A stretch of 64,000 nucleotides of DNA from Chiloscyllium plagiosum. Its lineage: Eukaryota. This document shows, in pieces, positions 10,848 through 62,332 of this stretch. Both the position numbers and the translations under genes were made by a program. The stretch covers positions 1,811,930 through 1,875,929 of the forward strand of contig NC_057753.1 of the NCBI RefSeq assembly GCF_004010195.1, given 5' to 3'. The notes beneath the pieces were generated by a model. It was not told the DNA's origin, made no database searches, and was given only the letters and a program-made list of their open reading frames with translations. The stretch's first letter is position 1, and each line of letters opens with the position of its first letter.

Positions 10848-11071
10848 TTATTTAAATCTTTTAATCACTAGTGTCAGGGGAAATTTCACGAATTTCGTTA
10901 GCTGCTGTCCGAATTTACTCTGCGTACTGGCATAAATAAATGGGGTGATGCAGGAACTCAAAAGCTGAAGCATAGTCCCACCTTCATCAAGAATTAAATT
11001 TGACTCATTGTAATTTGAGAAGTAAGTCACATTCGCAATTTGAACATAGAGGAAGGTAAGGAGAACAAAAC
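10848..11071 (-). pseudogene. GPR139/142-like GPCR copy A, 3' fragment only (TM6 end to C-terminus), cut off by the gap
   Basis: TYFSNYNESNLILDEGGTMLQLLSSCITPFIYASTQSKF aligns to TM7 and helix 8 of copy C. It has a 6-nt deletion relative to copies B and C, and NPxxY is changed to TPxxY. Confidence 0.75.
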
Positions 11072-11175
11072 NNNNNNNNNNNNNNNNNNNNNNNNNNNNN
11101 NNNNNNNNNNNNNNNNNNNNNNNNNNNNNNNNNNNNNNNNNNNNNNNNNNNNNNNNNNNNNNNNNNNNNNNNNNN
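11072..11175. other. Assembly gap (104 N)
   Basis: Run of n characters. Confidence 1.
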
Positions 11176-12086
11176 GCGCTGACACATTCAGGGGACAGAG
11201 CAAGTCACAGGAGTCAGCGAATGTCGGGGGTGGGGTGGGGTTGGATTTGGGAAAAGGAACAAGCGGGAAATTCTGAACGTGGTGAAATCAATGAGTGCAG
11301 TCCATACACAAAAATACATGTGTACACGAAGTGTGAATCGGTGAATAGAAGCCTCGAATATGAAGAAAATCAAAGAAGAGCGAGAACAGGAAACAAAGTC
11401 AGAGTTAAACACATAAATAAAACGGGACGGAAAGGAATCACACAATTCTTGAACGTTGACACCTCAAAGCTGAAAATTGCGTCGCTACTCTCCAGTTCAG
11501 ACGAAACGTCCTAGAGTTTCTAACTATACTTAATCCCTCTCCTGGAGTCCAGCTCAGATCGAGAAATTACTTCCTTGCACACCCCTCTCTGGCTCCACAG
11601 AAACTGGCATTGGACTGTCTCAATTTGGGCAGCGTTAAGTAAAGCAAGCCAGAACAAATGTTGCCAGAAACCTAAGAGTTGTTTTGGGAGTTATTAAGAA
11701 CTGCTTCAGTGACACTCAGTGGCACTGTGAGCTCATGAGAATCGTCATAATGTCCTGTTTTATACAATTCTCATATGTCAGATCATCATATTATTTCAAA
11801 GTGAGATTATGTGCAATATTGAAATAGTCAGAGTAGACATACATTGTTTTGCAACGATTTTCCATGTTTATCACACGTTGCCTCTTTAATGTCCATACGT
11901 TTGGACGAAGAATTACTGGTGTATCTCTGGGGCCTGTCAATCATGGTAGAGAAGGTGAATCAGGAGAAGTCATCAGCAAAGACTAATCAAATTGACAAAT
12001 GCAAATAAACATAAAAAACAAAGTGTGAGAATAATGTTGAACCCAGATTGCATTTTACTGCGATTTACGTCATTATCGTATGATCA

Positions 12087-12973
12087 TTATTTAAATCTTT
12101 TAATTACTAGTGTCAGGGGAAATTTCACGAATTTCGTTAGCTGCTGTCTGAATTTACTCTGCGTACTGGCATAAATAAATGGGTTGATTCAGGAACTCAA
12201 AAGCTGAAGTGTAGCCCCACATTCATCAAGAATTAAATTTGACTCATTGTAATTTGATCCTGAGAAATAAGTCACATTCGCAATTTGAACATAGAGGAAG
12301 GTAAGGAGAACAAAACGTCCGACAGCAGGAAACTGCCCGAGATGGCGAAGAGTAAAACAAATGACTTTCTCCGTTTTTCCAACTCTGGGTCACTCTTACA
12401 CTCTCCATTGCTTCGGCTGTAATGGCAAATTAAACGTGCCTGACAGTGAGGACATTGAGCTGAAAAATTGGAATGAATGGAAGACAAGGGTTTGAAATTA
12501 TGACTATTCAATTAAAAGCAATCCAACAGAGTGAGGTATAATATATTGGTTTGAGGATGCAATACCAAGGTACTTTGTTAATGATAAATGATGGCCCATA
12601 AGCAAAGTCCAATGGGATGTTTCTGATATAGCTCAAAGTGCAGGCAGTTGCTATAACCAGAGTCGCAACTTCCTCAATGCAATATTTTATTTTCAGTTTC
12701 TGGCAACAAATGGCATGAACTGATCAAAGGTGAACTTGACAGTTACCCAGGCAGTAGAATCTCTGACTCCATAAATTAATATAAGATACACAATACAGAC
12801 TGGGATCTTGTCGAGTAATGTCATCGGGAAGTAAATAACTACAATCCAATTTTATATCACAGCTTTGAAAATGACGAGGACATCCATCACCGCCATGGAT
12901 ACCAGATAATATATAATGTCCTTGGAAAGATCACACATTTCCCGTGACAGGATAACAATCACTGAAAGGTTAG
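12087..12973 (-). pseudogene. GPR139/142-like GPCR copy B, exon 2 (disrupted)
   Basis: Colinear with copy C exon 2, and the acceptor catag|CTAAC is retained. Lesions: 1-nt deletion near DRF (about 12717), TGG>TGA at 12508-12510, 19-nt deletion in ICL3 (about 12418), 1-nt deletion at about 12315, and Cys>TGA in TM7 at about 12190. Confidence 0.92.
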
Positions 12974-14101
12974 CTATGAAAAAGAGAGAAAGAGTGAATA
13001 CATGATATCAACAAATATGGACATAGTCAAATAAAGATAAAAACAGTAGTAATTACAAAGATAGAAGAATCCAAAGTTTGGACTGAAAACATTTCTGTCC
13101 AATGCAGACAAATAATCTCCATTTGGCAGTGAAGTCTCAGTATTATGTTGAATGGTAATAAGAATTCTTCACAGTAAGCGTTGTCATACTTTCTTTATAA
13201 TTCAGTTGCAGGACATCCACTTTATTTTGCTCATAGAAAATCTTAGATCTACGGCAGCAAATGCTGTCTGAAATATTGGCAAATCGAAGAAACAGTAATA
13301 TTAAAACTGAGAAAGAAATGGCCAGAAAGAAGCAGATGACATGTAAAGTAATGATATCCTAGAGTTTCACGTTGAAACAGATATCCAAGAAGAGATCTCT
13401 TAAAAATAAAAGAAAACTGACCTCTGAATGGAAAGAGATCTGGGATTGTAATTGGCAGTAATTTTAAAGTAAGGCAACAACGTTCTGTGAGAGACAAAAG
13501 TTTACTTATAGCTCTATTGGCAATGTTCTGGCTTTTGAATCCTATGATTTTGGCTTCTAATCCTACTGCAAGTCTTCAATACTGACTGAGTATTGCATTG
13601 TCCAATGTGTTGCATTTGTGTGAAACTAATAATATGGGAAATAAGAGAAGAATATACAATGTAACTGAACTGGCAAAAAGCCAGTAGAAATATCAAAACA
13701 TATCATTTTTTAATCTACACAGTAACGGAACTTTCTCAAATTTAACATGATTTTTGACTTGTTCCTTCTGCTGTCTCTGAGGCTGATTACCTATGATAGT
13801 TTAAATTGAAGGTCAGTTTGTCTCCGACTTTCAGATGAAGGACGCTTCATGATAATCTCAACCAGTGGAAGAGTTGAACCAAAATCTTGCCGTCCAGCCA
13901 TTTGAGCCAACTGACAGAATTGACCCCTTTACTATTGTATAACCTGAATAGACAATCACATTGAATTGAAACAGTTACAAGGCTAAGTCCGAAAAGACGA
14001 TGGGATCGCTTAGTGTGCAGTGTTACTACGTGCGCGAAGGGATAAACTGATGTTAGAAAATTAAAATAATTCTCATTTCATAAGTAACAGATATCCTTTA
14101 T

Positions 14102-14171
14102 TTGGAACCCTAACAGCAGCGAGGATTAGATAGGAAATAGTAAACACAAGCCCTTTTGGTAATACATGCTT
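14102..14171 (-). pseudogene. GPCR copy B, exon 1 homolog (start codon and splice donor lost)
   Basis: Reads KHVLPKGLVFTISYLILAAVRVP versus MHGIPKGLVFAIYYPILATIGVP in copy C. ATG>AAG at 14171-14169. The donor G|gtaaag has become A|ataaag. Confidence 0.88.
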
Positions 14172-16444
14172 TTCTGTCTCAAGGCTGCGGTCAAGTTTGG
14201 CACTGCAATGGATGGTAGTCAGATTTGTACTTGATGGAAGGCTCCAGGGACACAACGAGATGCCTTGGGGTTTAACAACAGTAGCAGTAAATGGGCAGTC
14301 AGGTTAGAGATATTTCTTCCCTAACCATCTTAAATTTTGATAGAATAGAAACTTTATTCATGGGCACTGGCAGTGATCTCAAGTGAAACACTTACAGGTG
14401 TTATCTTCTTGAATTAAAAAAAATGACGAAACATATCCTCATAAATGTGTACTAGAGTGCTTTGCATGAACTTCGCTTGTCTATCAATAAGTTATCTCTG
14501 ACCTGAAATATTCAGCGGCGTTTCTTCTCCCTGATCATTATTCACTACGTTTAATGAAAGGTTTACGTCTCTGTGATTAGGTTCAGGTCTCGCTGAAACT
14601 GCATAACCACTGTAAATAAGCAGTCCATGCACACTTTACGGACTTTCACATTGTATGTGTTGCTGCTTTCACAAGGCTGGCTTGTTTTTACGATTACTCC
14701 TTATGCAGATTGGATCAGATGAAAACATTATATGATATTTCGACACGCAAGCTCATCTTGACCAGATTCAATTAAGCCTACACAGCTCCAGTTCAGCGGT
14801 ATTATTAGAATTGAAATTCGCTGCTTCTAGTCAACGCATTTAGAGTGGGTAAGACTGTTTAGTGTGGTGATATTAGATGCGTACCATTGCATTCACCCTG
14901 CGTGCACTATGTCACTGTGTTTATCTTCAATACCAGAGTTGCGTGAGGCAGGGTGGGTTGAAATCCATTCATTAATCAGACACGGAGTAGTCCAATTTCA
15001 CAAGTTTAAATTAAATGCAGACAGGCTCATTCAGTACTCTCCCATAACAAAAGGACAGATCGATGTCCTCCTCGGGGTGCATTTAGTCAGAGCAGAACCG
15101 TGCATTTGAGCACAATTCATTCTAACATAGACAGAATCATTTTCACAAGTGAATGTGACTGTGAAACTGTACCAGCTAATTTAGTTGTTAGTGCACTGAA
15201 AACAATGCATTGTGAAAATTTACCTTGTGTTGGGAATTCCGATGCAGTTCGGACAACATTTGTATTCAATGTGCACGAGTTCAGTTTTGCACACTTCCGT
15301 TCATCATACACAGGCTTAGTTCTCCACACGTACATTCAACGTGCACACGATTAATGTTGGACACTTGACTTTATTATGGTGAGTCTAGTGATAGTGTTAA
15401 TTTTACTGTCAGAAGTGCTCAACTAGTTCCTAATCAGAAGTTTACACTGGAGCCGCAAAAGCTGCTCTTATGCTGTTTAGAAGGTCGTCAGATGGGAAGT
15501 ATAGATAAAGTAAAAGAAAGGTCGGAGTTGTTTTTTAAGGTCTTGAGAAGTGTCCTTAAAGCAGAGACATTGTCGTCTCAGCAAGTCCTGTGAGCAAAAT
15601 TGTCGAATTTGGTTCAATATTGAAACAACCCCCGCCCCCCCCCCACCACCCCGATTTGAATTTCATAGCCACATCGAAACCTGCACTCTACACCCTTTAG
15701 TGACCTTGTTGAGTTTCAGTGTGTCCCTTACGCGTGCAGTTTGACACAGAATGTAGGTTTATGCATAAGTTCACTGCTTTTTGGTGTTGTTATTCAAAGC
15801 TACCTGCCCCACTGCGCTAGCTGGTCTTAAATGTGCATCAGTCAATGAGTTTATGTCAAAATATTGATCTGTTGCAATTTTTCCTTCTTTATCTCCCAGC
15901 ACTTATCGTTCTGTTGGCCAATATTACAATTTGCTATGTGCACATTTACAAACTTGTTACACTATCATTACATACTTCTAACATTGGTGGAGGTCCTGAA
16001 ACTTAATTTTGCAAAGAAAAATAGAAATTGACTAAGAAATCAGAAGGCTTAACGGCATCTGTGAAGAGAAAACAAAAGGTTTAATGTAATCAATGAAGAG
16101 TAAACATTGTTAACAATTCAAATAAGTATAAATTAATTTTGCATCACCTACGTCTTCTGCTTGTTCCGCATATGGCTTCATATTTCCTTAAACCATGGCT
16201 TATTTGTTAGGCATAAATATTTCAATTGAACCAGAGAAGTAATGTTGAATAACAGAAAATGATTTGCGAATAAGTTAGGAATGTATCTTGCATTATCGAT
16301 GCAGGAATACCCAGACAGCTTCGCCTGGAGTCTGAACTTGTTTGTGACTCCAGGTACACCACGACGTGCTAGCTGATTAAAACATGTCAATTGTTCTACA
16401 GGTAACACTATATGAGCTACTAATGTCTTAGAAATACGAAAGGA

Positions 16445-16705
16445 ACAGATAGCACTGTTTACTTTCAGTGCTTAGGGCAAGGGTTTGATACCAATCTCTC
16501 TTTGTGGAGTTTCTGTACTCCAGGGTGAGTTCCCGTTGGGTGCTCTGGTTTCGTCCCACAGTTCAAAACTGCATCAGTTAGCAATTTAGGTGTGGTGGGG
16601 AAGGGAGCAGAATTACCGAGATATTGCAGTTGGTCTGTGTGGTTTGTTCTTCAGAGAGTCGGTGTGATCTCGAAGTGTGAATGGCCTGCTTCCAGACTGT
16701 CTATG
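16445..16705 (+). mobile_element. Degenerate HE1/V-SINE
   Basis: tagcactg...tgtggagtttctgtactcc...gggtgctctggtttcgtcccacagttcaaa...aatggcctgcttcc. Confidence 0.6.
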
Positions 16706-17569
16706 AACTGAGTGAGTACTCTGGCTGCATGTTCATGAATTTTGACATTGCTAATACTATTGTAAAGGCGGAATTTGGGTTCGTAAAAAGAATTGGATGG
16801 CAGAAAACCAAAAAGGAATAAATAAGCGATGGGTACGGCTCACAGGAGTCATCGTCCAGCCATAATGGATGTATACTGGGTTGATGGGTCGCCATGTGAG
16901 ATTCTAGTTGCAATCTTTCAATCCTCCTGCAATACTGGCAGAATGACAGATGAACGAAGGGTTGAATATGTTCCATCTCTGAAAATAAACTGAAAGAATA
17001 AACCAAACAATCATGAGCAAGTGACCCAAATTCAGTCTTCGGGGTCAATCTGTAGAAAACATTTTCTGTGATACAATTACATTTCACTTGGAAAATCGTG
17101 AGATAATAAATGGCATTACATATTAGTAAAATTAAAGCTCATTGGATTTACAAGCCTTGGCAGTCACAGTGTTTGCACAAAATTGGATATGGTACAGGAA
17201 ACATGAATTGGTGGCGAATGGTTGTTCAACAAATTTAAGGCACGTACTCTATGGGTATTCAGGTCACTGTTCTTTTCACATAGATCAGGAACGTAGGTAT
17301 AATTTCAAACATTGCAGGTGACTCATAATCTTTAAATGTAGTACACAGTGAGAAAGAAACAACAAATTTCAGGAAGGCATAAATTACAGAAAGTAGCAGA
17401 TAGACAACAATTCTGAGAAGTGCGGAAATGCATTTTTGGAGGAAGAATGAGAATAAGCAATTTAAAATCAGTGGTACTGCACATGTTTGCCTTGAGTGCT
17501 ATTACCTTTACAAAACCGTGCAACGTCTGAGAGAATTGAATCATTTTACTCTGTTGTCATGTTGCCACT

Positions 17570-18260
17570 GGGTCGTGTTGAGAACAGAGATACCAAGGGG
17601 TTCAGGGACATAAATCCTTGAAATGTGCTTGCAGAGGGACACGGTGTCTAAGGTAGCGTTTTGAATGCTTGTCCTCCTTGCTCATAACTTTGTATATAAG
17701 AGTTGGGACGTCATGTGAAGGTTGTACAGGACGTTGATGAGACATCATTTGGAGTACTGTATGCTCTCTGTCCGCCCTGTTATAGGAACAATATTATTAA
17801 CATGGAGAATGTTCAGAGAAGATTTACCGAGATGTTACAGCGAATGATGTTTGAGTTCTAAAAATAGGCTGGATAAGCTGGGATTTATTTTAACTGGAAT
17901 GCAGGAGATTGAAGGATCTCCTGGTAGAGGATTAGAAAATCACGAGGGTTTGTTTAAGAGGAATAGCAAATGTTTTTAGCCTCATGTGTTCAAAACTAGG
18001 AAACATATTTTTCAGGTGAGGAGAAAGATTTAAAAAGGACACGAGAGGCAACCTTTTTACACGGTGAGTGGTTAGTATATGGAAGGAAATGGATTGTGGA
18101 AGTAGTGGATCCGGGTACAGTTACAACGTTTAAAAGATATTTGGCCAGTTTTGGAGGCATTAGTCAGATGGCACTAATATGGTAAGAGAACATTGCCGGC
18201 TTGAGCCTGCTTGGACTGCATGGTGTGTTTTCATGCTGTATGACGCTATGACTGCGTATG
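17570..18260 (+). mobile_element. CR1 LINE 3' fragment
   Basis: Degenerate CR1 C-terminal coding sequence (ttgtacaggacgttgatgagac...ggagtactgt; ttacaacgtttaaaagatatttgg) and a tail tgctgtatgacgctatgac. Confidence 0.7.
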
Positions 18261-20539
18261 AAAAAGAGTAAAAGGTCCAAGATGTCTCGAACATATGCAC
18301 ACACCGTGATCAATGCTTCCATTTGGTAGAAGTGGCTTTAGTTTAGGCAGAATTTGTTCAATGTGTCTACGTGTTCAGACAGGAACAACAAGAGCTCTCA
18401 CTCTGAGCTGCAGCACTGACAGAGCTTTACGTTCTGTATGTCATTGTGGAAATATATTATGAAAGAACGATTTTAGAATGTTTATAACATTTTCCGTGAC
18501 ATAGTCTTTTCGATTCCTCTTTTACACTGTAATTCCCGGTAATAAACATCTCAATGAAGTAGACGTGAAATAATCTAGCGTCACCTTCATGTCTCTTATT
18601 GGTGACTTAAAGAGTCGGAAGGTACTTCACCAGAGCGCATATACTGCACTTGCTTCGACTCCTTGCTAAGTTTGTTTCTTCTCCACTTTTATAGCCAGAA
18701 AAAAAGAAAGATGCAAATGGATTTGATAGCTTCTCTGCCATTTTCCCATATCAGATAGAGTATCGTTTGACCCAGTCCTTTCAAGCAGACGGCTATGCCA
18801 TTGTGAGAGACTGAGATTTTCGACTGATCTGCGTTTGAATATCGACTCAATCCTATTGTTGACTGAATGAACAGGTGAAGAGTCCAGCCACTGTAATGCA
18901 TGAAAACGTTGGAACTGAATTTGAAAGATGCTTCATTTCGAATCATTGTTTAAAGCGAACAACTAAATCTGAAAAAAATGTAGAGTTCGTGCTTTTTCTC
19001 GTGAACTTATCTGAATGTATGTTCTCGCAGACACATGAAACTAATTGCTCACCACGTCTCAAAATGCATTCAGCTTATCACCTTTGCATAGGCTTTTGAG
19101 ATCTCGTGTACAATAGATGTTGGGGGTCGAGATTCCTAATCACCAAATTAAATGGCAGAGCAAGATCAGAAGTCTTACAGTTCTACTGCTGCCCCTAGAT
19201 TGATGTTATATTGCAGTAGCAATGCTCGAGGCAACCGTTCTTTATTAGATTTAATTTATTATTTCACGGAATGGGGATGTCACAGGTTCAGTCAGGGTTT
19301 GTCGTCGATTTTAGAGTTATTGCATTCACGTGCTGTATAGACCTGATAAAGGGAGCAGTTAGCTTCCCTAAAAGACATAATTAAACCGAAAAACATTTCA
19401 TAGTTATCTTCGACACTTAATTCCAGATTTACTATGAAATCAGCACAGCACCTACCTCAATGACGGGACTTGGACTAGGGATCCCAGAACATGATCTTGG
19501 TCTCTGTAAATTGCAACAACAATTCAGAAATGTTTCGCCCATATCCTGGTGCTACGAGTTGTTTGAGAGGTTAAGGCTATCAAAAGCAAATCTTGTTTGT
19601 TATTCACTGGTTGGCTCATCACACTGTCATCGCCATTTCAGGGAGTATATATCTCTATATTCTTTCATGATGCTTGCCTACCTTTTGTCAGGGCTCAAAG
19701 CTTTTAATTGTCAATGGATATTGCTAATAATATTGTTAATGTTATTATAAAGAAGAAGCTTAAGATGGTAAAAAAGAATTGGATGTGAGGAAAACAATCA
19801 GGAATAAAAAAATGACAGGTACAGCTCACAGTCGTCATCATCCAGCCAGAATGGATGCATACTGGATTGATGGGTGGAAATGTGATTTTCTCGTAGCAAT
19901 CTTTCAATCCTCGTTCAATACTGGCAGAGTGACAGATGAATGAAGGGTTGAATGCATTCCAATGCTGAAAATAAATTAAAAGTATAGACCAAGCAATCAT
20001 GAGTCAGTCACCCATATTCAGTCTTTGTGGGCAATCTATAGAAAACATAATCTGTGATAGAATTAATTTTCACTTAGAAAATCATGAGATAATAAATGAA
20101 GTTACCTATTAGTAAAATTAAACTCATTTGATTAACAAGCCCTGGCAGTCATAGTGCTGATACAAAATTGGATGTGGTAGAGGAAACAGAAAAAATATAC
20201 TACTTTTCCATTGACTAGATGATTGAGAAAAAAAAGATAAAACATATGTGAAGAGAATTCAACGTTAACGTTTTGGATTCTCTGACCCTTCTTCAGAACT
20301 GCTGGTAGTTAGGAAAATATTGGTTTATATGCAGAGAGGTGGAAGACGTAAGGAGAAATCAGTAGGTAAGGATAGAGGCCAAAGAGAAATGAACAGTTCA
20401 ACAGAGCAAACACCTCATCAACTACTAGGATGGACATGAAATTAGCATCATTGGGCATGAAAAAGGATTGACATCCCGTCGGAAAGAGGAACGACACTTC
20501 TTCAAGGTGTCAAGAAGAGATACAACAGTGAATTAACGT

Positions 20540-22290
20540 AGAATCAAAGAGTCATAGAGTCCTACAGTACGGAGACAGGTCCTTTGGCACAAACTGGTCC
20601 ATGCTGATCAAAATGTCCATTGATGCAAACTCAATTTTCCTACACTTTACCCATATCCTTCTAACCAATTCCTATATATATATATATATAGAAATATATA
20701 TATATATGCACGCATGCCTTTTAAGTGTTATTAATGTACTCACCTCAATCGCTACACTGGCAGCTCATTTCATATGCATACCACCCTCTGTGTAAGAATG
20801 TTGCCCTTCAGATTCTCTTTTATTCTTTCCCCTCTAAACTTAATCTGATGCACTCTAATTCTCGATTCTCCAATCCTGAGAAAATGTGAGAGTGCATTCA
20901 CCCTATCCATGTCTCTCATGATCTTATTAAACTCAGTAAGATTCCTCCTCAGTCTCCTGCGCTCTCAAGGAAAAGGTAATAGCTTGTCCAATCTATCCTT
21001 ATAACTCAGACAATTCAGCCCAGGCATCATCATTATAAAGGGCTTTTGTATTCTTTTTAGTTTAATAAGACTCTTCCTACAGCAAGGTGAACAAGAGGGA
21101 ACACAATGCTCCAAGTGCAGCCTCACCAACGTCCTGTGTAATTGCAACAAAACCTTCCAAATACTACACTCAATGCTCTGACTGATGCAGGCCTGTGTGT
21201 CAAAAGCCTTCTTCACTGCCCTGCCTCCCTGTTACTCCCCTTTATGAGAACTGTAAACCTGAATTCCAAGATCCCTCAGTTCCAATATATTCCCGAAGGC
21301 CTTACCATTCTCAATGAATCTCCTTACTTGATATGACTTCCAAAGTGAAAGACCTGACACTTACCTACGTTAAACTTCACTTGCTATTTCTCAGCAGACT
21401 TCTCCAGCTGATCAAGGTCCAGCTACAATTTTGATAAAATTCCGAACAGTCCACGATACTGCTTATTTTTGAGTCATCACCAAATGTACTAATCATGCCT
21501 TGTACATTCTCACCCAAATCAGTTATATAGATGACAAACAGCAATGGACTGAGCACTGACCCCTGAGGCACGCCACCTCATAGGCACCAGTCCGACAAGA
21601 ATTCTTCCACTACTGCCCTTTGCTTACTACTGTCAAGAAAATTTTGCATACAATTTGCCACCTCGCCCTGGATTCCATGCGATCTAACCATTTCAAAGCA
21701 GTCGATCAAGTATAACCTTATGAAAGGCCTTACTGAAATCCACACAGACTACGTCGAATGCCCTGCCCTCGTCAACCTTCCTGGTCATTTCATCAAAGAA
21801 CTTTAACAAATTTGTGTGACATGATCTCCATTCACAAAGCCATGCTGAGTATTCCCAATTATATCCAAACTTTCCAATACATGTATACCTGATCTCTTAG
21901 AATCTGCTGAATTACCTTACCACCATAGGTGTTAAACTTATTGATGTATCGTTCCCAGGCACTTCATTGTAGCCTTTCTTGAAGAGTGGCGCAACATTTG
22001 CTATCTGCCAGTCTTCTAGGACCTCACCCATGGCTAACGATGATGCAAAAATATCAGTCAGGGCTCCCGGAAATTATTGTCTAGCATCTTGCCGTGTTCT
22101 TGAATGTGTCTGTTTGAGACGAGGAGACTTATTCAAATTCATACATTCTAATACACCAACCACCTCCTCTATACTGGCATGGACTGTGCCCAAGATATCA
22201 GCATGATATCCCAAGCTCACAAGTGTTCACATCTTTCTCCACTGTAAACACAGAGGAGAAATATTTATTGAGAGCCAAATCAAGTATAAT
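20540..22290 (-). mobile_element. CR1 LINE ORF2 RT fragment with 3' tail
   Basis: PQGSVLSPLLFVIYITDL...FGDDSKI and LHRTLVRLHLEHCV in minus-strand translation. Tail (gagtcata)n near 20550. Confidence 0.85.
20673..20707. repeat. Interrupted (TA)n microsatellite
   Basis: tatatatatatatatatagaaatatatatatatat. Confidence 0.9.
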
Positions 22291-24522: not shown

Positions 24523-25433
24523 TCATGGTTTAAATCTTCTAAACACTAGCATCAGGGGAAATTTCACTAATTTCTTTAACTGCTCTCTGAATTTACTCTG
24601 CGTCCCTGCATAAATAAATGGGTTGATACAGGAACTCAAAAGCTGAAGCATATACCCACCTTCGTCAAGAATAAAGTTTGATTCATTGTAATTTGAACCT
24701 GAGAAGTAACTGACATTCGCAATTTGAACATAGAGGAAAGTCAGGAGAACTAATAAATACGACAGGAGGAAAGTGCCCGAAATGGCGAAGAGTAAAACAA
24801 TGGACTTTCTCCGTTTTTCCATCTCCGGGTCACTCTGATCCTTTCCATTGCTGCGGCTCCAGAGTCTCCTCCGGGCTCTACTGGCCGATAGAATGTGCCT
24901 GACAGTGAGGACATTGAGCAGCAAAATCAGAATAAATGGAATACAAGGGTTAAAAACTACTATCATCCAATCAAATACAACCCAAAAGGGTGAGGTATAA
25001 TATATTGACTTCAGGCTGCAATACCAAGGTACATTGTTAGTGATAAACAATGGTTCATATGAAAAGTACAAGGGGATGTTTCTGATACAGCTTAGAATGC
25101 AGACCGTCGCTATAATCATAATTGCTACTTTCTCAGTGCAATATTTCATTTTCATTTTCTGACAACAAATGGCAATGAATCGATCTAAGGTGAAAGTGAC
25201 AGTTACCCAGACAGATGAATCTCTGACTCCATAAATAAACATAAGACTGCCACTGCAGACTGGGGTGAGGGACAGGAATGTCATTTGGAAATAAATACCC
25301 ACAATCCGGTTTAATATCACGGCTGTGATGATGACCAGGACATCCATTACAGCCATGGCTACCAGATAACATACGATGCATTTGGAAAGACCACAACACT
25401 CCCGTGACAAGATAGCAATCACCGAAAGATTAG
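24523..25433 (-). CDS. GPR139/GPR142-like class A GPCR copy C, exon 2 (intact, 303 aa from ANLS)
   Basis: Open 7TM frame with TM2 AMAVMD, TM3 Cys (TPVC) and DRF, ECL2 PWYC, TM5 NPCIP, TM7 NPFIY and helix 8 KFR. Polypyrimidine acceptor ttttatttttcaaag|CT at 25435-25434. The MYLLFFK start in the ORF track is intronic. Confidence 0.92.
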
Positions 25434-26942
25434 CTTTGAAAAATAAAAGATACATGAGAGTGATTATATGGTGTCAACAAATATAGGTGCAGCCAAACAA
25501 AGACAAAAAAAAATACATCTGGTAAGCAATGTCAAAGAGAGAAAAGAGTTCAAGTTTTGCCTGATAATATTTGCATGCACCTGTAGAAAAGACACTAATT
25601 GGCAGAGAACACTCATAGCCAGATCATTTTATCAGTTTTATACTGACGTTGTTTCTTTGCAATTCAGTTGCAGGAAGTCCAGTCTAATCCACTCTTGGGA
25701 AACTGGTACAGAGGAACAGTAACAATAATCAGATGTTGGCAAATTGAAGAAGCGGTCCAAAAAGAAGCAGAAGACATTGAATGTAAAGAAATGCCAAGAC
25801 CTTCACGTTGATGCATATATCCATGAAGGGATCACTAAACTCATTTCTAAAGTGAAAGAGATCTGGTATTACACTTAATAATGATTTCAAACAAAAACAA
25901 CACCGGTTTGTGACAGACAATAAAGCAACAGAACAGATGAATTCCAAGTGTAGCTCTTTTGGCAATGAGCACTCTTTTGGGTCCAAACGTTTGGCTTCAA
26001 ATCCTACTACAATACTTCAGTATTGACTGAGTATTGCACTGTCCAAGGTGCTGTCTTTATGTAAAACCAATAAATGGACGACATCGGAAATGAGAGTACA
26101 ATATGAAGTCTAACAGAAGTATCACATCGCTGCCGTTAATATTCCATCAGCAACAAGTTGTACAGCATGCTAAAATTGGTGTACCTCAGTAACTATGCAG
26201 ATAAAACAATGATATATTTGCAGTGTAGTAATTAATCAACAATTATACTGCTCCAAATAACCGAAATACAATTGCATAACATTCCCAGTGAGATAACACA
26301 CGTGCAGTGCTTGTGTTAGGAATACAACAGATGAGTATTTCTAACTTCTAAGAAAAAATAATAAACCATAAAAGGGGAAAAAATGATATTGCTCAAGGAA
26401 ACGGTGCATGCTAACAATGTAAAGAAGCTATACAATTGAAAAGGAGAAATTAAGTCATAAAATGCAGAAAATAACGTAGAAATTCATTGAAAACATTTTG
26501 TTGGTGAAATTGAAATTAATGTTCTTAAAAAGGTGAGGCATTCTAAACCAACGCAGGTGACATTAGCATTCTCTTACTGGATCACAGGGATTCTCTCTTG
26601 TGAGACAGAAACCACTCACAATGGTATAACCTGAAGGTCACGACACCTCAGGCAAGGTGAGAGGTTGAGAGAATCCTTCATGGTAAGCTCAGCTAGTGCA
26701 AGATTTGAAACAAAAACATGCTGTCCAGCCAACTGAGCTAACTGACTTCCTCAAAATTGTGGACCCCAAATAGCCAACACCTTTGAATATAACCAAATTG
26801 CTGGTATGAATACCAAAGAAAAACATTATGACTTCATTGGGACTGCACTATTGATAACTAAGTGAAGGTGTACACTGAGATTAGAAATTTAAAGAATCTC
26901 TTAAAAATCATTATTATGTAATAATTGACGGATGTCCTTTAC

Positions 26943-27012
26943 CTGGAACCCCAATAGTTGCTAGGATTGGGTAGTAAATAGCAAACACGAGCCCTTTTGG
27001 TATTCCGTGCAT
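26943..27012 (-). CDS. GPCR copy C, coding exon 1 (MHGIPKGLVFAIYYPILATIGVP plus phase-1 G)
   Basis: ATG at 27012 with a purine at -3, and donor CCAG|gtaaag at 26942. Splicing to exon 2 gives ...GVPANLS... and a 326-aa protein. The YY-x6-GxPAN TM1 pattern resembles GPR139 YYSLLLCLGLPANIL (from recall). Confidence 0.88.
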
Positions 27013-28689
27013 TTCTGTCTGAATCTGCAGTTCCGTTTGGTGCCACAGTGAATGATAATCACATTTATACCTGATGCCAGGCTCCAGAGACCCAATTGAA
27101 TGCATTGTTGTTTATAACCATAATTACTGTACATGTAGAAAGCAGATTAGACATATCTTTGCTTCGCTTATCTTCAATTTTAATGGATTTCAAAATGTTT
27201 TCCTGGGCATTGTCATTTATCTGAAATCAAGTGCGTACAGGTTCTGGTCTCTCTGATTGGGAAAAAAGTGAAATACGAAGTAGGCCGTTGGAAATATGCA
27301 AAAAGCTGGATCTGGTACACTACAATCACTTGATGAATGAGCAGCACTCAGAAAGCTGGTGTTTCCAAATAAAACTGTTGCACTATAAATTGTGTTGTGT
27401 GATTTTTGACTGGATCTGGCTGAGTTATCCTTTTCTACGAATAGGATATTTCGATGCTTAAATGCTTTGTTCTATTGGAATATGCGGTCACGTTTCCTTT
27501 CATGATCATTGTTCTGCCTATATGATCACTGATTAGGTTCGAATCTCTCTGAAACTGTTTACACCTTCAGAATAACTGTCTGCACGCGGTGTGTAGGTAC
27601 CTTTATTATATTTCGTTTTGTGTTCAGGGCCAGTTTATTTTTACAATTACTATGACTGCAGAACAGATCACACTTGAACCTTTATAATGTCTTCTGAAAA
27701 GTCAAACACATACTAATTCAACTTGCACAATCTAATTCAGCAAGCACATAAAAGAATCGATACTTGCTGCTTTCTGGGTAATGCCTGTTCAATGTGATTA
27801 CATTTTTCATGATGGGGATGTACCGGTGTGGGACTATGGTAGACATCGTCAGAAATCTTCACGTGACGCATCTCTCTCAATTGTGATCGCAAATAACGTG
27901 TTTCACTATAACACGGTGTCTTGAGACCTCTAACTGCATTCAGTCTATCACAGTCCAGTGCTTGCTATTGCATCACTGTGGTTGTCTTCACTTGGGGAGT
28001 TTGCATATGACAGGGTGTGGTAAAATAATTCATTGAACAGAGAGGGACAGGTCCAGTTTCACAAGGTTAAATGAAGTGCTGATAGGCTCAAACAGTACTC
28101 TCTGATTATAACTTGCCGGATCCATTCCCTCCTCAGGCATTTAGTTAGGGAAGAAACGTGCAATTCAGCACCATTCATCACAAGATGGAGAGAATTATAT
28201 CAATAGGTTAATTTACTTATGAAACTGTCGAAAAGATTTTGTTTATTAGTACAGTGAAAGCGATCTGTTACGAATATTTATATTCAGAGTTGAAAAGACC
28301 CTTTCAGTTGTGAGCATAGATGCATTCAGTGTGCACTGGCTTAGTTCAGCACAGTTACATTCAGCGTACAAAAGATCAATTGAGGCCTCTTGCGTTCATC
28401 ATGTAAAGCCCAGATCAACAGCGTGACCTATGGCTTTTGATCAAGACTGTAACACGTTGGGGAGCAGGTGAGCGCATTGAGTTTCGAATGGTGAGGTGGA
28501 ATGTGATAAAATAGCAACGATTGCGTTTCCTATGCTTATAAGACGTTCTCGTGAAGAAAGCTGTTGTTTCAGGTGAGTGCATGAAGTGTACTAGGAAAAT
28601 ATCTGAGGAGAGGCTGCTTGGAAGGACTGAAAAGTAAGATTCTAAATAGAAACCCATTGACTGCTCCGTTGTTCAAATAGATCATATAT

Positions 28690-42472: not shown

Positions 42473-43201
42473 TCATGTAAACACTAGTTTCAGGGGAAAT
42501 TTTGGCAATTTCTTCAGTTGCTGTCTCGATTTTCCCTGTGACCCTTCATAAAGAAATGAGTTGATACAGGAACTCAAAAGCTGAAGCATAAAATCAACTT
42601 CCTCAAGTATAATGTTTGACTCAGTGTAATATGAAACTGAGAGACAAATTGAGTCTTTCAAGTTGAGCACTGAGGAAGATCAGGAGTATCAACAAAAAGG
42701 ATAGGAACAAACTGCCGATATGTTGAAGAATAATACAACGTACCTGACAGTGAAGACATTGAGCAGCAAAAACAGAACTAATACAAGACAAGAGTTTAAA
42801 ATTACAATTATGCAATTAAATCCAACTCAAATGGGTGAGGTATAAAATATTGCTTGATCCTACAATGCCAAGCTACATCATGGTTGAAAAAGGAAGGGTC
42901 ATAACGGAAATAGAAGGGGGTATTTCTGATAAAGCTCGAATTGCAGTCAGTTAACATAATTACAGCCGTTTAGTTTAAAGCTTCCAGAAATAAATGACAA
43001 CGAATCTATCAAAGGTGAAAGTCGCTGTTCCACAGACCGATGAATCTGAAAATCTATGAATTAACAAGGGCCTTGGTCTACAGTCCAGAGTGAAGATCAC
43101 GCATGTCATTGGGAAATATATACCAACAACCGGTTTAATATCACAGCTGTAATAATGACCAGCAGATGTGTTACTGCTATGGAAACCGGGTAATAGGTGA
43201 T
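42473..43201 (-). pseudogene. GPR139/142-like GPCR copy D, exon 2 (heavily degraded)
   Basis: MLQLLSSCINSFLY, TFTFDRFVVI and VVGIYFPMT are recognisable in different frames. Deletions remove ICL3 (junction about 42738) and the acceptor/TM1 region (junction about 43201). The intron homolog continues to about 44290, but no exon 1 was found. Confidence 0.88.
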
Positions 43202-44540: not shown

Positions 44541-44597
44541 TAAGCCATCAATAAAAGTGTTTTAAAAAGAGAACGAATACACGCTGCTGTTGACGCT

Positions 44598-53509: not shown

Positions 53510-54363
53510 TTCCATTGATCAATTCACCTAACCTGACCTGGTTTAGCCTGTCAGAGGAAGTTGGAGCACCTTGCAGAATCGGAGAGAGAGAGACACGAGG
53601 AGAACATGCAAACTCCACATCTACAGTCTTCTGAGTTTGCAATTGAACCCATATCGCTGGCACTGTGAAGCAGCAGTGCTAACCACTGTGCTCCTTATCA
53701 CAGGTATTATTCATCCTGCTGGAAACCAGAGAGTTCAGAGGAACTACCGTAATTCAGTGAAAAGTACAACAGGGAATGGAAACCATTACCTAAACTGTGT
53801 TTGGAAATGAGGATTCACTTAAAATAATGATTAAGGACAAGAATTTCCGTGATTCTTTCCTTTTAACATTACATTCTATCGGTTTTAATTCATGCAAAAT
53901 AAAGAACAACGACCAGGAACGAGAAAGAGCAGAAGCACAAGTTTATCATGTGGAACATATCAACTTGCCTTTTTTTAAATTGAGGAGACGAGTTAGAATT
54001 AGAATTCCAGCAGCACTGGGACTACTGTGGAAGGAGGGCTTTCCACTCATCTCTCCCACACCGACTGCCTGAAGACCAGTCAACCAAGATTAACTCTCCG
54101 AGTCTATCCCGTGACACTGTATTTCCATTGATCAATTCACCTAACCTGACCTGGTTTAGCCTGTCAGAGGAAGTTGGAGCACCTTGCAGAATCGGAGAGA
54201 GAGAGACACGAGGAGAACATGCAAACTCCACATCTACAGTCTTCTGAGTTTGCAATTGAACCCATATCGCTGGCACTGTGAAGCAGCAGTGCTAACCACT
54301 GTGCTCCTTATCACAGGTATTATTCATCCTGCTGGAAAACAGAGAGTTCAGAGGAACTACCGT
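53510..54363. repeat. 241-bp near-perfect direct duplication (53510-53750 and 54123-54363) of part of an old SINE plus flank
   Basis: I found only one difference (ggaaaccaga vs ggaaaacaga). The ORF track shows duplicate ORFs 53571/54184 and 53472/54022. Confidence 0.95.
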
Positions 54364-56904
54364 GATTGTATTTAGCTGTTAAGCATACCTAGTACTGAAA
54401 ATAATTCATTCGGAAAGTTGGGATTGATTTTAACGAATATTTGAGACAAGATTTAATAATTTGGAAATTAGTTTGCTGCATTGTAAAACCTACTCAGAAA
54501 CGAAAAATCTTTCTTTATGCTGTCCGCAAACTTTTGCAAAACCTAAATAAGCAATGAGTCATTTCTACTTCCTGCATTTTATTGACTGAAAATGGGATCA
54601 TTGCTACACTGGGAACTGCAAACATATGTTGGTTAATTACTTTGTGGAGCACTATAAAAATAAGTTCTCAAAGTGGGCGCTGACGTTTTGGTCAATTATA
54701 GTTGTAATTTTCTGCCCATATCCACTCTGACTTTGGCTTCCAGGAATGTTGTAGGTAAACTGAATGGGAGCTCAACAATAGCTTTCAATTCAACATTTTC
54801 CAAGTTTCCATTCTCAACATGAAATTCATTTTTTGCACCTTAGGGCATATTCAGCTCTTGGAACACTTGCCCTGAAAATGTGCTCGGAACTGATTTTATG
54901 GATAGATTGTGCTTGCTTATCCTCATGTACCAATCAATCCTAAAATCCTTGAAAAAAAAGCACCATTAAAGTTTTACATTCTAGGGAATATCTCCGTGGT
55001 GGTGTATTTAGCAGACGGAATAAAGAGAGTGAACATATAGTTAGTTGTCCAATTCTAAAAAGTTTGCAGGGATCACGAGATTTCTGTTCCATGGACATGC
55101 ATCCTTGAAGTTATTGGGATTTATTCATCGACTGCAAAGCAAAGTGACTCTCGAGCTTCAAAAAATATTGGTATTGAGAACAAAACGCAGGCAAGTAATG
55201 TGTAACATCTATAAGTTTCTCGTGAGCCCACAAGTCTACTTCTGAGTGCACTTCAGGTCACCACTATTTACAACGATAGAGAGCGTCCTTGAGAGTTTGT
55301 AGAGTTGAGCTATCGGATTGGTGTCAGCGAAGCAGGTTGAGAAAACATTTGATTGAGTTTCAAGATGTACAACTGGTTTAAATTAGATATAAATGTACAG
55401 TTTAGTGTGATTGCCTGATTGTACACTTATTATGGTCAGATTGAAGTTTCTGAGGAAAAACAAGAGCGGAATTTGATACGAACATTTTCACACAATTGAT
55501 GGTGATGTTCTGGAACAGGCTGTCATGATAGTGTTAGGAAAAGGACACAGTGGTTGAGTTAAAAAAAATGAATTACCGTTTGAGCGAAAGATCATGCAAG
55601 CATAGAACTGAGGAATGCTTGTGATTGCATTGTTGTAGGTAGCAAGACTGGACTCAATCCACTGAATGGCCTACTATGCTGCTTAAGGGTTCTGACTCTT
55701 TGGTGCGTTCTCTCCATGTGTCTAAAATTTTGAATTCAGTTTTCACTCATCCCAAGGCTATTGGATAATTCAAATGCGTGTAGTCGAGAATTAGTTACAT
55801 CTCTCCAAGCTGAGTCTAAACACGGTTTGGTTATCTCAGTACATTGTCAATATCACTGATGGCTGAAAGTCTCCCACCGAGAGAACAGATGAATCTTTAT
55901 CGTTCAACATTTGTATGCACATGTTATTCAGACCCTGATCTCTCCGAATTTGATATAATGTATATTTTGAGTTTCCTATCTGTCAATCATCGGCTTTCAC
56001 TCGGTGATAAATTGAGAAAATCTTTAATGTCAGTTCGGGACTGAAATTCAGAATAGGCAATATTTCTCTTGCTTCGAATTTGATGAGTATAAATCCTCAC
56101 AGTCTGACATTTTGCGAAAGGAAGGTCACGCACGCGCCCTGTTGCAACTTGCTTCTCATTATATGCATGTATCTCACGGAATATTGCCCCCAGTAACGAT
56201 AGCAGCAGTAAACCGGGCCCTACCAAAGAAAACTAAATCATTGACTGCGGACCGTTCACTGCAGTAATGGAATCCGTCGTTTCCATTTCAGAATCTGTGG
56301 TTAGTTTTGTTCTTTATGAATATTCCCCGCCCAATTTGCGTTCTTCCCACCCATCCAGTTTCTCATTGTCTCACTGATTAAACTTTTCATTATACTCATT
56401 GCAGTACAAGTGACAATAAAGCTAATTCTAATACTGATTCATGAGTAAGCGTGAACAGCGGCACAGCTGTGAGCATAAAATCAGGGAATTTGGAGGCAAT
56501 GTGCGAATTCAATGCAGAGGGGAATACCTACCTGTTGTTTCCGTTTTTTGCCTGGTAGTTTGCAAGGTTTCTTACCAGAATGAATTGGAGCCCAGTATCA
56601 GGGTCTCAGCACAAAAGACTGACATCAATGTTAACTCATAATTTCACTGTTTGGTGACAGCTACTAATTTGACAAAGAGCATAGTTTTCTTTGACATTGA
56701 AGGTAAGTCACGGAAATACTTGTAGGCCAGTATGACATTTCTATAAAGTTCAAATAAGGAGTAAGTAATTAAAAGAGTGATGATTTGCCAGGTGATATGT
56801 TGTAATTGCATGGCTTTGGAACTGATGGCCACCATTCTGCTTCCCAGTGACCACAACTGCAGCCAGTAAACACCAAAAGGAAGACGTTTCTGTAATTCAG
56901 ACAT

Positions 56905-59394: not shown

Positions 59395-59756
59395 ATTTAG
59401 AATCCCTACAGTTTGGAAACAGGCCAGTTAATCGATCACATCCACACCGACCCTCCAAAGAGCATCCAACTCAGACCTGCACCCCTATCCTTTCCCTGTA
59501 ATCCTGCATTTCCCATGGCTAATCCATCCAGCCTACACATCACTTATCACTCCGACAATTTAACATAGCCAATCTACCTAACTTCCACATCATTGGACAA
59601 TGGGAGCAAACCAGATCACTCAGAAGATAAAACTCCAGGCAGAAAAAGGGAGAAATGCAAACCACACACAGACAGTCGCAGGAAGGTGAAGTCGAAATCG
59701 GCTGCCTGGTGCTGTGAGGCAGAGTTGTGGAACATTGAGTACTGTGCCAGCCCGTG
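59395..59756 (-). mobile_element. Degenerate HE1/V-SINE
   Basis: tagaatccctacag tail...ctgcatttcccatggctaatcc...cacacagacagtcgc...gtgctgtgaggcag...actgtgcca. Confidence 0.75.
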
Positions 59757-61418
59757 CTAGTTAAATGGCAACCGATGAAGAATTCAGTAAGTAATTTCAT
59801 TTCTCAAGATAGAAGCTGCCAATCAAAAATGTAGATCGATAAGTGAATTAGTGATAAAGATCATTAGTCTGCTGTCGAACCTAAAAACATCGTGAATGTT
59901 TAAAAATTGAAATGTGAGCAGGAACTTTTGGAGACGCTCAATACCGTCCATAGATTCAGTCGAGACAGAATTTCGTTCACGATTCACGTTTAGCAGCAAG
60001 TGGAAGGCGTCAAGGAGTTGGCGCAAGGTAGAGGTGGCAAGATGAACAAAAGGGAAAGTCTGCAATATGGTGGCTCGGTGGGGAAATTAAGTGACGAAAA
60101 GTGAAATGAATGGGAGAGGTCAAGATGCAAAAGATGTGTCAGCAGCAGATGTGATACAAACTTTGAAAGTAAAGAAAATCATACAAAAAAAACACAAAAC
60201 AAAGTCAGAGAGAAAGACCAAATGAAATGGGATACAAATCAAATCACACAATTCTTGAACTTGATGTCTCAATGTTGACTATTGCATCCTTTTACTCCAC
60301 AGTTCAGAACAGACCAGCTAACTTTAAGTAATCCGTGTCCAGGAGTACAGCTCAGGTCAGTAGGTCATTCAACACCACTTTCCTCCCTGCCTCGCCAGAG
60401 ACTGGTATTACACTGTCCCACTTCTGGACAGAGCTGGGGAAAGAATCAGGAACATGTTACCTAGCAGCTTGTAACTTTTCACTCTTCCTGTCGTGGATGT
60501 CAGATAAATCAGGGTAATATGTAACTTGGAAGTTATGGCTTTCACCTATACCTGCATTGTTTATATGTAGCGGGGTTGAGCATTTGGGACCTCTTTCCAA
60601 TTCTTAAGTCTTTCAAATCTGCCTCTCTCACCTCTCTATCTCCTTCCGTTGTTTGCAAGTGCTGACTGGTTCTGGCCCCTGAGTGACATTAGAGAATGAG
60701 TTTGGTTTATACTGGCAATCCAGCAGCTTTCACAGTCATTTTCTTCCTCACTGTGTCAGCTCCACGCGTTACCAGGTTCATTGCCTCGATTTTTGAATTG
60801 GCCTATGTGTTCATAGATTGTCACCAATTGTTTTCCGCTGCAATAATCAGATTCACAGGAAATTAGGGGGTGGATTTGCTGTCAGGAAAACTGTTGCAAA
60901 CATTGTGGCACAGATGAGTTACTGGCATGCTATTTGCTTCTTGACAGAAAATGTTAAAATGAAATTAAGAGAGCAGCGCAGAACCAGCATGTCCTGCAGC
61001 TAGAAAATTGTATTGTGGGATAATACAAACCACTTCCATGAAATTCGGAATCACTGAGAACATTGGGACGTTTGAAAATGTCTGATTTTTGTGCAGCTCT
61101 CAACTCCAGATTACCATAATCTTTTGACGTGAGAGTATATACAAGAGTGAGAGAGTGAGATAGTGAGACCAATCATAATTTTGTTTGCACCATCTTTTCC
61201 TTCTTGAATCATTTCTCGCTCTTTTAATTATGTGTTTTCTGAATAAGCATTGATGTATCTCAAGGGAATGCCGATCACTTTACATCAGGTAAAACATGAG
61301 ATTTCAAAAGCACAGCCCAATCAAGATTTCATACGTGAATGAATAAAAAAGGAATGCATTGACATTAACTTTGAACTCAAATTATGTAATGTGATAATTT
61401 AGTCACAATATATTTAAT

Positions 61419-62332
61419 TTAATCACTCTTTAAATAATTTAAACACGTGTGTTGGGGGAATTCCAACAATTTCTTTAATTGTTGTCTGAATTTCCTCTGA
61501 GTCCCTGCATAAATAAACGGATTAATGCAGGAACTCAAAAGCTGAAGCATAGTTCCTCCTTCCTCAAGAATAAAATTGGATTCAGTGTAATTTGAAACTG
61601 AGAAATAAATCACATTTGCAATTTGAACACAGAAAAAAGTCATTAGAACCAATAAATATGACAGGAGGAAACTGCCGGAGATCGCAAAGAGTAAAACTAT
61701 GGACTTCCTCCGTTTTTCCAACTCTGGATCATTCTGATTCTCTCTATTAATCCTGATCCGAAGTCTTCTGCGGGCTTGACTGGCCAATATAATGTGCCTG
61801 ACAGTGAGAGCATTGAGCAACACAATCAGAACGAATGGAAGGCAAGGGTTTAAAATTACTGTTATCCAGTCAAATGCTACCCAACTGGGTGAGGTATAGT
61901 ATATTGGTTTGAGGTTGCAATACCAAGGCACGTTGTTAATGATAAAGGAAGGTTCATATCCAAAGTACAAGGGGACCTTTATGATACAGCTTAGAGTGCA
62001 GATAGTTATTATAACCACAGCTGCTACTCTGTTGGTGCAATATTCTATTTTCAGCTTCTGGCAACAAATGGCAATGAATCGATCAAAAGTGAAAGCGACA
62101 GTTACCCAAACGGAAGAATCTCTGACTGCATAAATTAATGCAAGTCTCACACTGCAGACTGGAGTGATGGAGAGAAATGTCATTGGGAAATAAACACCCA
62201 CAATCCGGTTTAATATCACAGCTGTGATAATGACCAGTAGATCCGTCACCGCCATGGAAATCAGGTAATGCGTGATGCATTTTGAAAGACCACAACTTTC
62301 CCGTGAGAGGATAAGAACAACTGAAAGGTTAG
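61419..62332 (-). CDS. GPR139/GPR142-like class A GPCR copy E, exon 2 (intact, 304 aa); exon 1 predicted just beyond the window end
   Basis: Open 7TM frame with DRF, PWYC and NPFIY. About 73% identical to copy C by manual count, with no internal indels. Acceptor ttcttcatag|CT at 62334-62333. The intron aligns with the copy C intron up to 64000 (equivalent to about 26740). Confidence 0.9.

Follow-up and report, generated by a model that had tools for sequence, protein, structure and literature searches.

A multi-megabase cluster of GPR139/142-related receptor genes in the shark Chiloscyllium plagiosum, a candidate chemosensory repertoire

We have found that a 64-kb stretch of the genome of Chiloscyllium plagiosum (C44:1811930-1875929, on contig C44 of a 3.56-Gb genome; referred to below as the window) forms part of a multi-megabase tandem cluster of genes for G protein-coupled receptors (GPCRs) of class A, on one small shark chromosome. 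On the evidence of sequence, the receptor family to which these genes belong appears to be a separate lineage descended from the ancestor common to GPR139 and GPR142. We regard the identity of this family and its mode of evolution, which is by DNA-level tandem duplication and pseudogenisation, as almost certain. A chemosensory role, suggested by features of the genes and of their predicted products, we place at or a shade under an even chance, and for the whole explanation, in which identity, evolution and chemosensory function are taken jointly, we consider the balance to be even.

Comparison by tblastn of the open reading frames (ORFs) of the window with the window itself places five class A GPCR loci, all on the minus strand, between 10.8 and 62.3 kb, as a first-pass annotation of this DNA had proposed when it described five same-strand paralogs. 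The loci and their parts are listed here in order along the forward strand. Residues in the list and in what follows carry Ballesteros-Weinstein numbers, which were assigned here from a profile alignment to GPR139 and from motif anchors; TM1 to TM7 are the transmembrane helices, and promoter positions are counted from the ATG.

10851..11071 (one boundary 11066), minus strand: copy A, a C-terminal fragment of about 74 codons that ends at an assembly gap (tblastn)
11072..11175: a run of 104 N, the assembly gap between copies A and B
~12087..12986, minus strand: copy B exon 2, a pseudogene with three frame-shifting deletions (1, 19 and 1 nt)
14103..14171, minus strand: copy B exon 1 remnant, with its start ATG changed to AAG and its donor GT to AT
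14224..14250 (C44:1826153-1826179), minus strand: copy B promoter block, O/E-like TCCCTGGAG and then TACAAA
24523..25433, minus strand: copy C exon 2, belonging to an intact gene and running from base 2 of the Ala codon that precedes N1.50 through to the stop
25434..26942, minus strand: copy C intron, about 1.5 kb, GT...AG, phase 1, inside TM1, with its acceptor AG at 25435-25434
26943..27012, minus strand: copy C exon 1, 23 codons and one base (MHGIPKGLVFAIYYPILATIGVP plus one base), with a GT donor
27064..27090, minus strand: copy C core promoter block TCTCTGGAGCCTGGCATCAGGTATAAA, in which the O/E-like site is at -78 and the TATA box at -57, counted from the ATG
42479..43201, minus strand: copy D, a degraded pseudogene with about eight frame-shifting indels and 72% nucleotide identity to copy C
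61419..62332, minus strand: copy E exon 2, intact, with its acceptor AG at 62334-62333, the same as that of copy C

Read as single ORFs, copies C and E appear truncated in TM1. The canonical N-terminus of their database relatives, MHGxPKGLVFAIYYPxLAAIGVP, is encoded 1.5 kb upstream of copy C (27012-26944), and copy C is thus a two-exon gene of 326 amino acids (aa); the first-pass annotation had the length right, but it is true only of the spliced gene and not of one ORF. Exon 1 of copy E lies 200 bp past the end of the window on the same contig (equivalent to 64200-64268), where it completes an intact gene of 327 aa whose promoter is at the equivalent of 64310-64336. The array therefore comprises two intact copies, C and E, two pseudogenes, B and D, and the fragment A, which agrees with the earlier tally of two intact and three broken or partial copies. 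The proteins encoded by copies C and E are 73.9% identical (241/326), close to the 73% or so first given for them, and the two genes are 81% identical in DNA. Flanking DNA of the copies is also homologous, at 65-72% identity, and homology that reaches into the flanks marks the copies as old DNA-level tandem duplicates and excludes chance similarity. In copy B a degraded form of this N-terminus is encoded 1.1 kb upstream of exon 2, at 14168-14103; a search for exon 1 of copy D did not find one. Copy A is a 227-nt C-terminal piece with 87.7% nucleotide identity to copy C. We note that, over 1,142 columns, copy A and the 0.9 kb downstream of it (9943-11071) match the 3' part of copy B (11176-12316) with 95.2% identity and that the two blocks are parted solely by the run of N, and so copy A may be a false duplication made in assembly or a very recent partial duplication of a 1.1-kb block.

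Among 19 neighbouring loci examined on C44 between 1.52 and 2.10 Mb, 14 are intact (322-338 aa, copy E included), four are broken and one is a fragment. Exon 1 with an ATG and a GT donor is found in 18 of the 19, and the AG acceptor is kept as well in 17 of these 18 (locus L018 has lost it). Together with the window copies, this gives 23 loci in 0.58 Mb, 15 intact and 8 broken, as befits the birth-and-death tandem array that had been suggested from the window. When the genome was scanned with a whale-shark relative, protein P0002, 123 places were scored among 8,624 first-look candidates, and every one of the 123 matches P0002 at E <= 2.5e-113 with 56-86% identity; 108 have no internal stop, and C44 carries about 73 of them in its stretch from 1.5 to 13 Mb, the matches outside C44 being on C8, C10, C12, C27, C30, C37, C39, C45, C46, C48, C49 and small contigs. 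A DNA pattern coding for NPFIYAG has 187 exact matches in the genome and a reversed control has none, which puts the family at no fewer than 187 loci, and a pattern for the TM3 motif V-W-x-T-V-x-F-T-x-D-R has 1,600 matches (control, 0), most of which belong to a second, younger and dispersed subfamily that is discussed below. Copy number had been named at the outset as a check on the chemosensory proposal, with few copies counting against it; at least 187 to about 1,600 loci is far from few. The typical gene has two coding exons, the first of 23 residues that make up the N-terminus and the opening half of TM1, separated by a phase-1 intron of 1-3.5 kb, and a product of 325-327 aa. Exon 1 was found within 3.5 kb in 12 of 20 loci from other clusters, and was not found in the stretch retrieved for the C30 locus L028. 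Because the intron is kept, the copies of the family are not retrocopies, and a retrocopy origin can be ruled out.

The predicted proteins are class A receptors by profile match and by fold. The longest receptor ORFs match Pfam 7tm_1 (PF00001) at 65.6 and 62.1 bits (cut-off 30.5) and match no other Pfam model. An AlphaFold model of P0002 (pLDDT 87.6, pTM 0.85) has seven TM helices and a helix 8 of 22 residues, with a beta-hairpin in extracellular loop (ECL) 2; helix 1 begins at residue 8, leaving seven residues before it, which bears out the very short N-terminus remarked on from the DNA. In a Foldseek search of the PDB all 50 listed matches were class A GPCRs, with NTSR1, MCHR1 and GPR139 the top three in that order, an order that does not single out GPR139. 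When P0002 was compared by sequence with solved structures, human GPR139 was the best match but a weak one (38.8 bits, E 6e-9), with an OR52 consensus structure at 32.9 bits. A profile of the family built from 87 sequences gave human GPR139 83.8 bits, the PrRP receptor 69.1 and the TRH receptor 68.0. Identity between the family and GPR139 is about 22-25% (22% in the structural alignment).

GPR139 is thus the best match among solved structures, and most members of the family carry the name GPR139 from NCBI's pipeline. Such automatic names imply that the copies are true orthologs of GPR139 or GPR142, a possibility we consider negligible. A degenerate pattern for TM3 and intracellular loop (ICL) 2 of GPR139 has a single match genome-wide, at C21:58730750-58731682 (L029/L030), and the ORF there (exon 2) matches human GPR139 at 527 bits over 279 residues; a match of this strength, set against 38.8 bits for a family member, means that the shark has its own GPR139 gene. 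A GPR142-like gene, 56% identical to the shark GPR139, lies separately at C24:44307599-44308375 (L031), so that one GPR139 and one GPR142-like gene face a family of at least 187 loci. For true GPR139 orthologs, a published identity of 70-96% holds across species from zebrafish to mouse (PMC7318219). The automatic names, moreover, disagree among family members, most of which are called 'probable GPR139' and others GPR15-like, capa receptor-like, sex peptide receptor-like or V2 receptor-like.

Phylogeny also parts GPR139 and GPR142 from the family. In a maximum-likelihood tree of 51 rows (LG+C20+F+G4; support given as ultrafast bootstrap/SH-aLRT), made up of GPR139-like sequences with two protostome rows as root, GPR139 and the GPR142-like sequences form a clade at 100/100. 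The chondrichthyan family is recovered at 100/99 with one long-branched salamander protein and at 91/68 by itself, the local array and the whale-shark P0002 form a clade at 100/100, and the sister of the family (95/93) is a clade with a coelacanth protein. We note, as a caution on the kinship itself, that the tree holds no other class A family, and so the monophyly of GPR139/142 and the family rests on the intron and the profile score. In all seven genes compared, the AG acceptor precedes the N1.50 codon by exactly 2 nt (the seven are window copies C and E, the shark's GPR139 and GPR142-like genes, a pair from the divergent C47 subfamily and another GPR139-like gene), and GPR139 is described as having two exons in the same source (PMC7318219). 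A shared phase-1 intron in TM1, together with the separate presence of the true orthologs, indicates that the family is akin to GPR139 and GPR142 and orthologous to neither. The first-pass annotation had likewise taken these receptors to be relatives rather than orthologs, and the shark's own GPR139 and GPR142-like genes, the shared intron, the profile match and the separate clade all speak for that view.

Kinship does not extend to the ligand pocket. Canonical class A micro-switches are the D/ERY, CWxP and NPxxY motifs and the disulfide that joins C3.25 to ECL2. The family conserves DRF, NPFIY and the cysteines C83 (TM3) and C162 (ECL2), but CWxP is absent; TM6 reads S-Y-L-L at 6.47-6.50 where, in the profile alignment, GPR139 has L-W-A-P. 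The agonist contacts published for GPR139 are F3x33, H5x43, W6x48, N7x38, R6x51 and E3x32 (PMC7318219). At these six positions the family has Y3.33, a variable 5.43, Y6.48, G7.38, a variable 6.51 and a variable 3.32. None of the six pocket residues is kept, and the ligand therefore cannot be carried over from GPR139; an aromatic amino-acid ligand, offered earlier by analogy, is not transferable. To judge from these residues, the pocket is rebuilt relative to that of GPR139, with Y6.48, without P6.50 and with the agonist contacts lost.

The sister clade in the tree points to another relative. Among the best 120 of 145 matches to the Latimeria protein P0222 are relatives 46-66% identical to it from a catshark (P0298, 66%), sturgeon, bichir, bowfin, teleosts, amphibians, turtles and squamates, and there is no mammal or bird among the named ones. 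These proteins (P0222, P0298-P0415) look like a conserved, apparently low-copy third branch of the GPR139/142 group. The P0222-type gene resembles the expanded family in its identity to it (31-34%), its length (324-345 aa), its best solved match (GPR139, at 70.4 bits) and its position as sister in the tree, and differs from it in appearing low-copy. Since sharks retain their own P0222-type copy (P0298), this gene is a paralog of the expanded family and not its ortholog. No characterisation of it was found in the literature searched. Two further branches are thus defined in an orphan-receptor group that is of drug interest.

The expanded family appears to be a possession of cartilaginous fishes. 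In a protein database search the best 120 of 1,802 matches, which are 60-81% identical, were inspected, and all 119 with a named source are from a shark or ray, 73 of them from Heterodontus francisci; at 90% identity or higher, that collection does not contain the proteins of the present genome. Searches of protein clusters extend the range to skates, to stingrays and, at 49% identity, to the chimaera Callorhinchus milii (P0136). A search of 1.84 billion cluster representatives gave 104 matches at E <= 1e-30, after which identity falls to 23-35%, the proteins just under the drop being from coelacanth, salamanders, teleosts and amphioxus. This range, from sharks through rays and skates to Callorhinchus, supports the earlier idea of a family expanded in cartilaginous fishes, of which we found no description in a literature search that covered chiefly open-access papers. 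The database models are themselves uneven. P0001 (350 aa) reads through the intron and does not use exon 1, P0003 (276 aa) takes a Met inside TM2 as its start, and P0004 (554 aa) contains two receptor copies, apparently fused neighbouring genes; P0006, at 569 aa, is close to P0004 in length. Many gene models of the family omit the 70-nt first exon.

Intact local copies are under purifying selection. Across 15 intact local genes (105 pairs, Nei-Gojobori medians) the nonsynonymous rate, dN, is 0.13, the synonymous rate, dS, is 0.48 and their ratio, dN/dS, is 0.28 (range 0.16-0.54); for copies C and E the ratio is 0.34, and the lowest values in the local array are those of TM6 (0.13) and TM7 (0.10). 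Family-wide, the outer half of the receptor is the more variable. Over 74 full-length members from several species the entropy is 1.01 bits in the outer half and 0.63 bits in the inner half (p = 1.7e-7), and variability peaks at 3.29, 3.30, 3.32, 3.35, 5.42, 5.43, 6.51, ECL2 and ECL3.

The second subfamily lies outside the window (loci L056-L071) and behaves differently. Its TM3-motif matches carry a near-identical 34-mer and are scattered over C8, C7, C4, C5, other chromosomes and many small contigs. Four copies, arbitrarily chosen, have 82-92% nucleotide identity over a full 3 kb, flanks included, and three of the four are broken; at these four loci neither exon 1 nor the promoter was found within 1.3 kb upstream. 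In all of 12 high-scoring copies, exon 2 is open over 302 codons with the same acceptor, and NTxIY stands in place of NPxxY. The dS among the 12 is 0.12 and dN/dS is 0.53, but the latter reaches 1.16 in ECL2 and 1.14 in ECL3 and is 0-0.16 in ICL1-3; it is 0.67 [0.47-0.93] for the outer half and 0.29 [0.19-0.46] for the inner. Only intact copies were chosen and the sample is biased accordingly, yet it combines a constrained inner face with fast-changing outer loops. When the flank upstream of one copy served as query in a DNA search, the sole match was to an interspersed repeat of about 345 bp, a result uninformative on whether flanks were amplified together with genes. This element (L059:1870-2211, on C4) had 5,517 first-look candidates at about 90% identity, and is like a short interspersed element (SINE) in size and copy number.

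These observations bear on whether the copy number might be largely passive, the product of segmental duplication or of a repeated unit, with most copies of little use and the window array simply old and partly decayed. We think this quite improbable, although the dispersal of the second subfamily, the similarity of its four compared copies into their flanks, the three broken copies among those four and the three dead copies among the five of the window are all what it would predict. It accords poorly with a dN/dS of 0.28 among intact copies of the window cluster, and with the full 302-codon exon 2 and the inner-half dN/dS of 0.29 in 12 of 12 high-scoring dispersed copies. The intron has been retained, so the copies did not arise as retrocopies, no transposase or reverse transcriptase adjoins the window copies, and a promoter block is conserved across subfamilies.

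That block, within the 100 nt before the ATG, is the sole strongly conserved non-coding element. Its consensus, cat.TAATTa..TCCCTGGAGCCTG.CATCA.GTATAAAtg, has TAATT at -86, TCCCTGGAG at -78 and TATAAA at -57, and it is retained across subfamilies on different chromosomes. We compared 30 paralog promoters from 9 contigs with control windows 200 nt further upstream. The strict O/E consensus TCCCYNGRG occurs at -90..-60 in 13 of the 30 (control, 0), a homeodomain core at -100..-75 in 15 (control, 1) and a TATA box at -65..-40 in 21 (control, 2). With up to three mismatches allowed, the genome contains 46 instances of the 27-nt block and 3 of the control, and nearly all of the 46 lie inside clusters of the family. 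Promoters of mouse odorant receptor (OR) genes are reported by Young et al. to be enriched in O/E, homeodomain and TATA elements just upstream of their starts, with TCCCyngrgar as the O/E consensus (PMC3247239), and OR enhancers to carry adjacent Lhx2 and Ebf sites at fixed spacing (in the section cited of Monahan et al., PMC5608512). By consensus matching, the homeodomain-like, O/E-like and TATA elements of the shark block resemble those of OR promoters, a resemblance we offer as a lead.

Of the readings considered, we hold a chemosensory repertoire to be the most likely, internal signalling the next and passive amplification the least. In the first of these the family would be a repertoire of environment-facing receptors, whether for olfaction or for another sense. 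The variable pocket formed by TM3, TM5, TM6, TM7 and ECL2 would bind small ligands, the signal would be relayed through the invariant face of ICL2, ICL3 and helix 8 to a common G protein, and expression of each gene would depend on a short TATA promoter of its own with adjacent homeodomain-like and O/E-like sites.

A number of points weigh against a chemosensory role, and we gather them here. In the local array dN/dS is the same in the outer and inner halves (0.272 and 0.267; bootstrap difference -0.10 to +0.11), and so diversification of the pocket is not visible in the sub-cluster to which the window belongs. A more variable outer half is in any case shared by many GPCR families and does not mark out chemoreceptors. 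The 30 paralog promoters share ancestry and hence amount to one conserved element, not 30 independent observations, and the O/E and homeodomain calls are short consensus matches, with 9 of 11 positions of the printed O/E consensus and 13 of 30 promoters matching strictly. EBF and homeodomain factors are active outside olfactory neurons too. Reads placed on 11200-27200 fell on none of the receptor exons and solely on the repeats at 16.5-22.4 kb; they came from a pair of single-cell RNA runs whose tissue is not given (sampled at about 2 and 6 reads in 100) and from one small run that may be RNA, and do not constitute a test of expression. Lastly, in the catshark data as far as the cited text presents them, a brain-and-olfactory library has no GPCR among its 50 most specific genes (PMC11979771), which is weak evidence because each receptor would be rare.

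Some of the same observations would be expected if the genes served internal signalling, as neuropeptide, amino-acid or immune-cell receptors of brain, gut or leukocytes. The nearest relatives, GPR139 and GPR142, are receptors of brain and gut (as the passages used of PMC7318219 describe them). The nearest folds, NTSR1, MCHR1 and GPR139, are called peptide receptors, the modelled beta-hairpin of ECL2 is typical of such receptors, an EBF-type site is also compatible with B-lineage or neuronal expression, and the local array has no excess of change in its outer half. Still, a count of at least 187 to about 1,600 loci, roughly a third of them pseudogenes, is far above any known family of receptors for internal ligands, and in the young subfamily dN/dS is about 1.15 in the outer loops, against a conserved inner face. 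To our knowledge, vertebrate GPCR families of such size are chemosensory. We therefore judge internal signalling to be rather unlikely, if the strongest competitor to a chemosensory repertoire.

In a bolder form of the chemosensory reading, this family would be the principal set of odorant or tastant receptors that cartilaginous fishes have seemed to lack, and would count as the seventh family of vertebrate chemoreceptors. Each sensory neuron would express one of its genes, from a promoter with the homeodomain plus O/E logic known from OR genes. We find this doubtful, though if it were true it would explain the keen smell of animals with fewer than ten ORs. Cartilaginous fishes have been described as poor in GPCRs, with very few ORs, trace amine-associated receptors (TAARs) and V1Rs and with V2Rs dominating the shark nose (PMC8455134, PMC11979771, PMC6368271, in the sections relied on here). 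Hundreds of class A genes under selection and with a variable pocket, found across sharks, rays and a chimaera and concealed by discordant automatic names, conflict with this GPCR-poor picture. For the question whether sharks use a receptor family that was never expanded in bony vertebrates, there are now concrete genes, a promoter motif and a cluster on the scale of a chromosome.

Other features of the window are mainly repeats. Transposon cargo was considered as an origin for the window array and set aside, for the flanks have diverged like those of old tandem duplicates and the window holds just two unrelated retroelement remnants. These were the two matches, both unrelated to the receptor genes, in a Pfam scan of 95 window ORFs. 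One is an RNase H remnant at 40098-40541 (plus strand), inside an insertion at 39277-42319, downstream of copy D, that is bounded by direct repeats (39277-39685 and 41620-42319) 82-84% identical to each other; with these repeats and the RNase H remnant, the insertion resembles the remains of a long terminal repeat (LTR) retroelement. An element of about 300 bp lies within the second repeat (41827-42117) and has further copies at 29294-29606 and 44597-44904. The other is a reverse-transcriptase remnant at 4029-4451 (minus strand), probably from a decayed long interspersed element (LINE); G+C is raised (0.43-0.45) over 1-8000, with a strong negative GC skew. An interspersed repeat of very high copy number occupies 16500-22400, where a DNA run gave a summed contig depth of more than 10,000 at 20.8-21.9 kb and about 10 elsewhere. 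Two 245-bp stretches (53510-53754 and 54123-54367), 99.2% identical and in direct orientation, lie 613 bp apart.

The family can be set beside two known systems. Like GPR139 and GPR142, its members have the fold of class A, a coding region in two exons whose phase-1 intron falls one codon ahead of N1.50, and a similar stretch from TM1 to ICL1, P-A-N-[IL]-x-V-I-[IV]-I-L-S. They differ from these receptors in numbering hundreds of copies rather than one each, in an N-terminus of seven residues, in a 12-residue insertion in ICL3, and in having Y6.48 and L6.50 where GPR139 and GPR142 have W and P. With the known chemoreceptors no specific homology was found, whether to OR, TAAR, V1R, V2R, T1R or T2R; Pfam 7tm_1 is the only model matched and the nearest solved receptors are GPR139 and peptide receptors. 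The coding region of the family is split by an intron, unlike those of OR and TAAR genes. Nevertheless, the family resembles the OR and TAAR repertoires in its big tandem clusters, in having about a third of its copies as pseudogenes, in its short extracellular N-terminus, and in a conserved cytoplasmic face combined with variable pocket positions in TM3, TM5 and TM6, and it is like the OR genes, as the promoter data cited from mouse present them, in its O/E-like, homeodomain-like and TATA elements near the start (PMC3247239).

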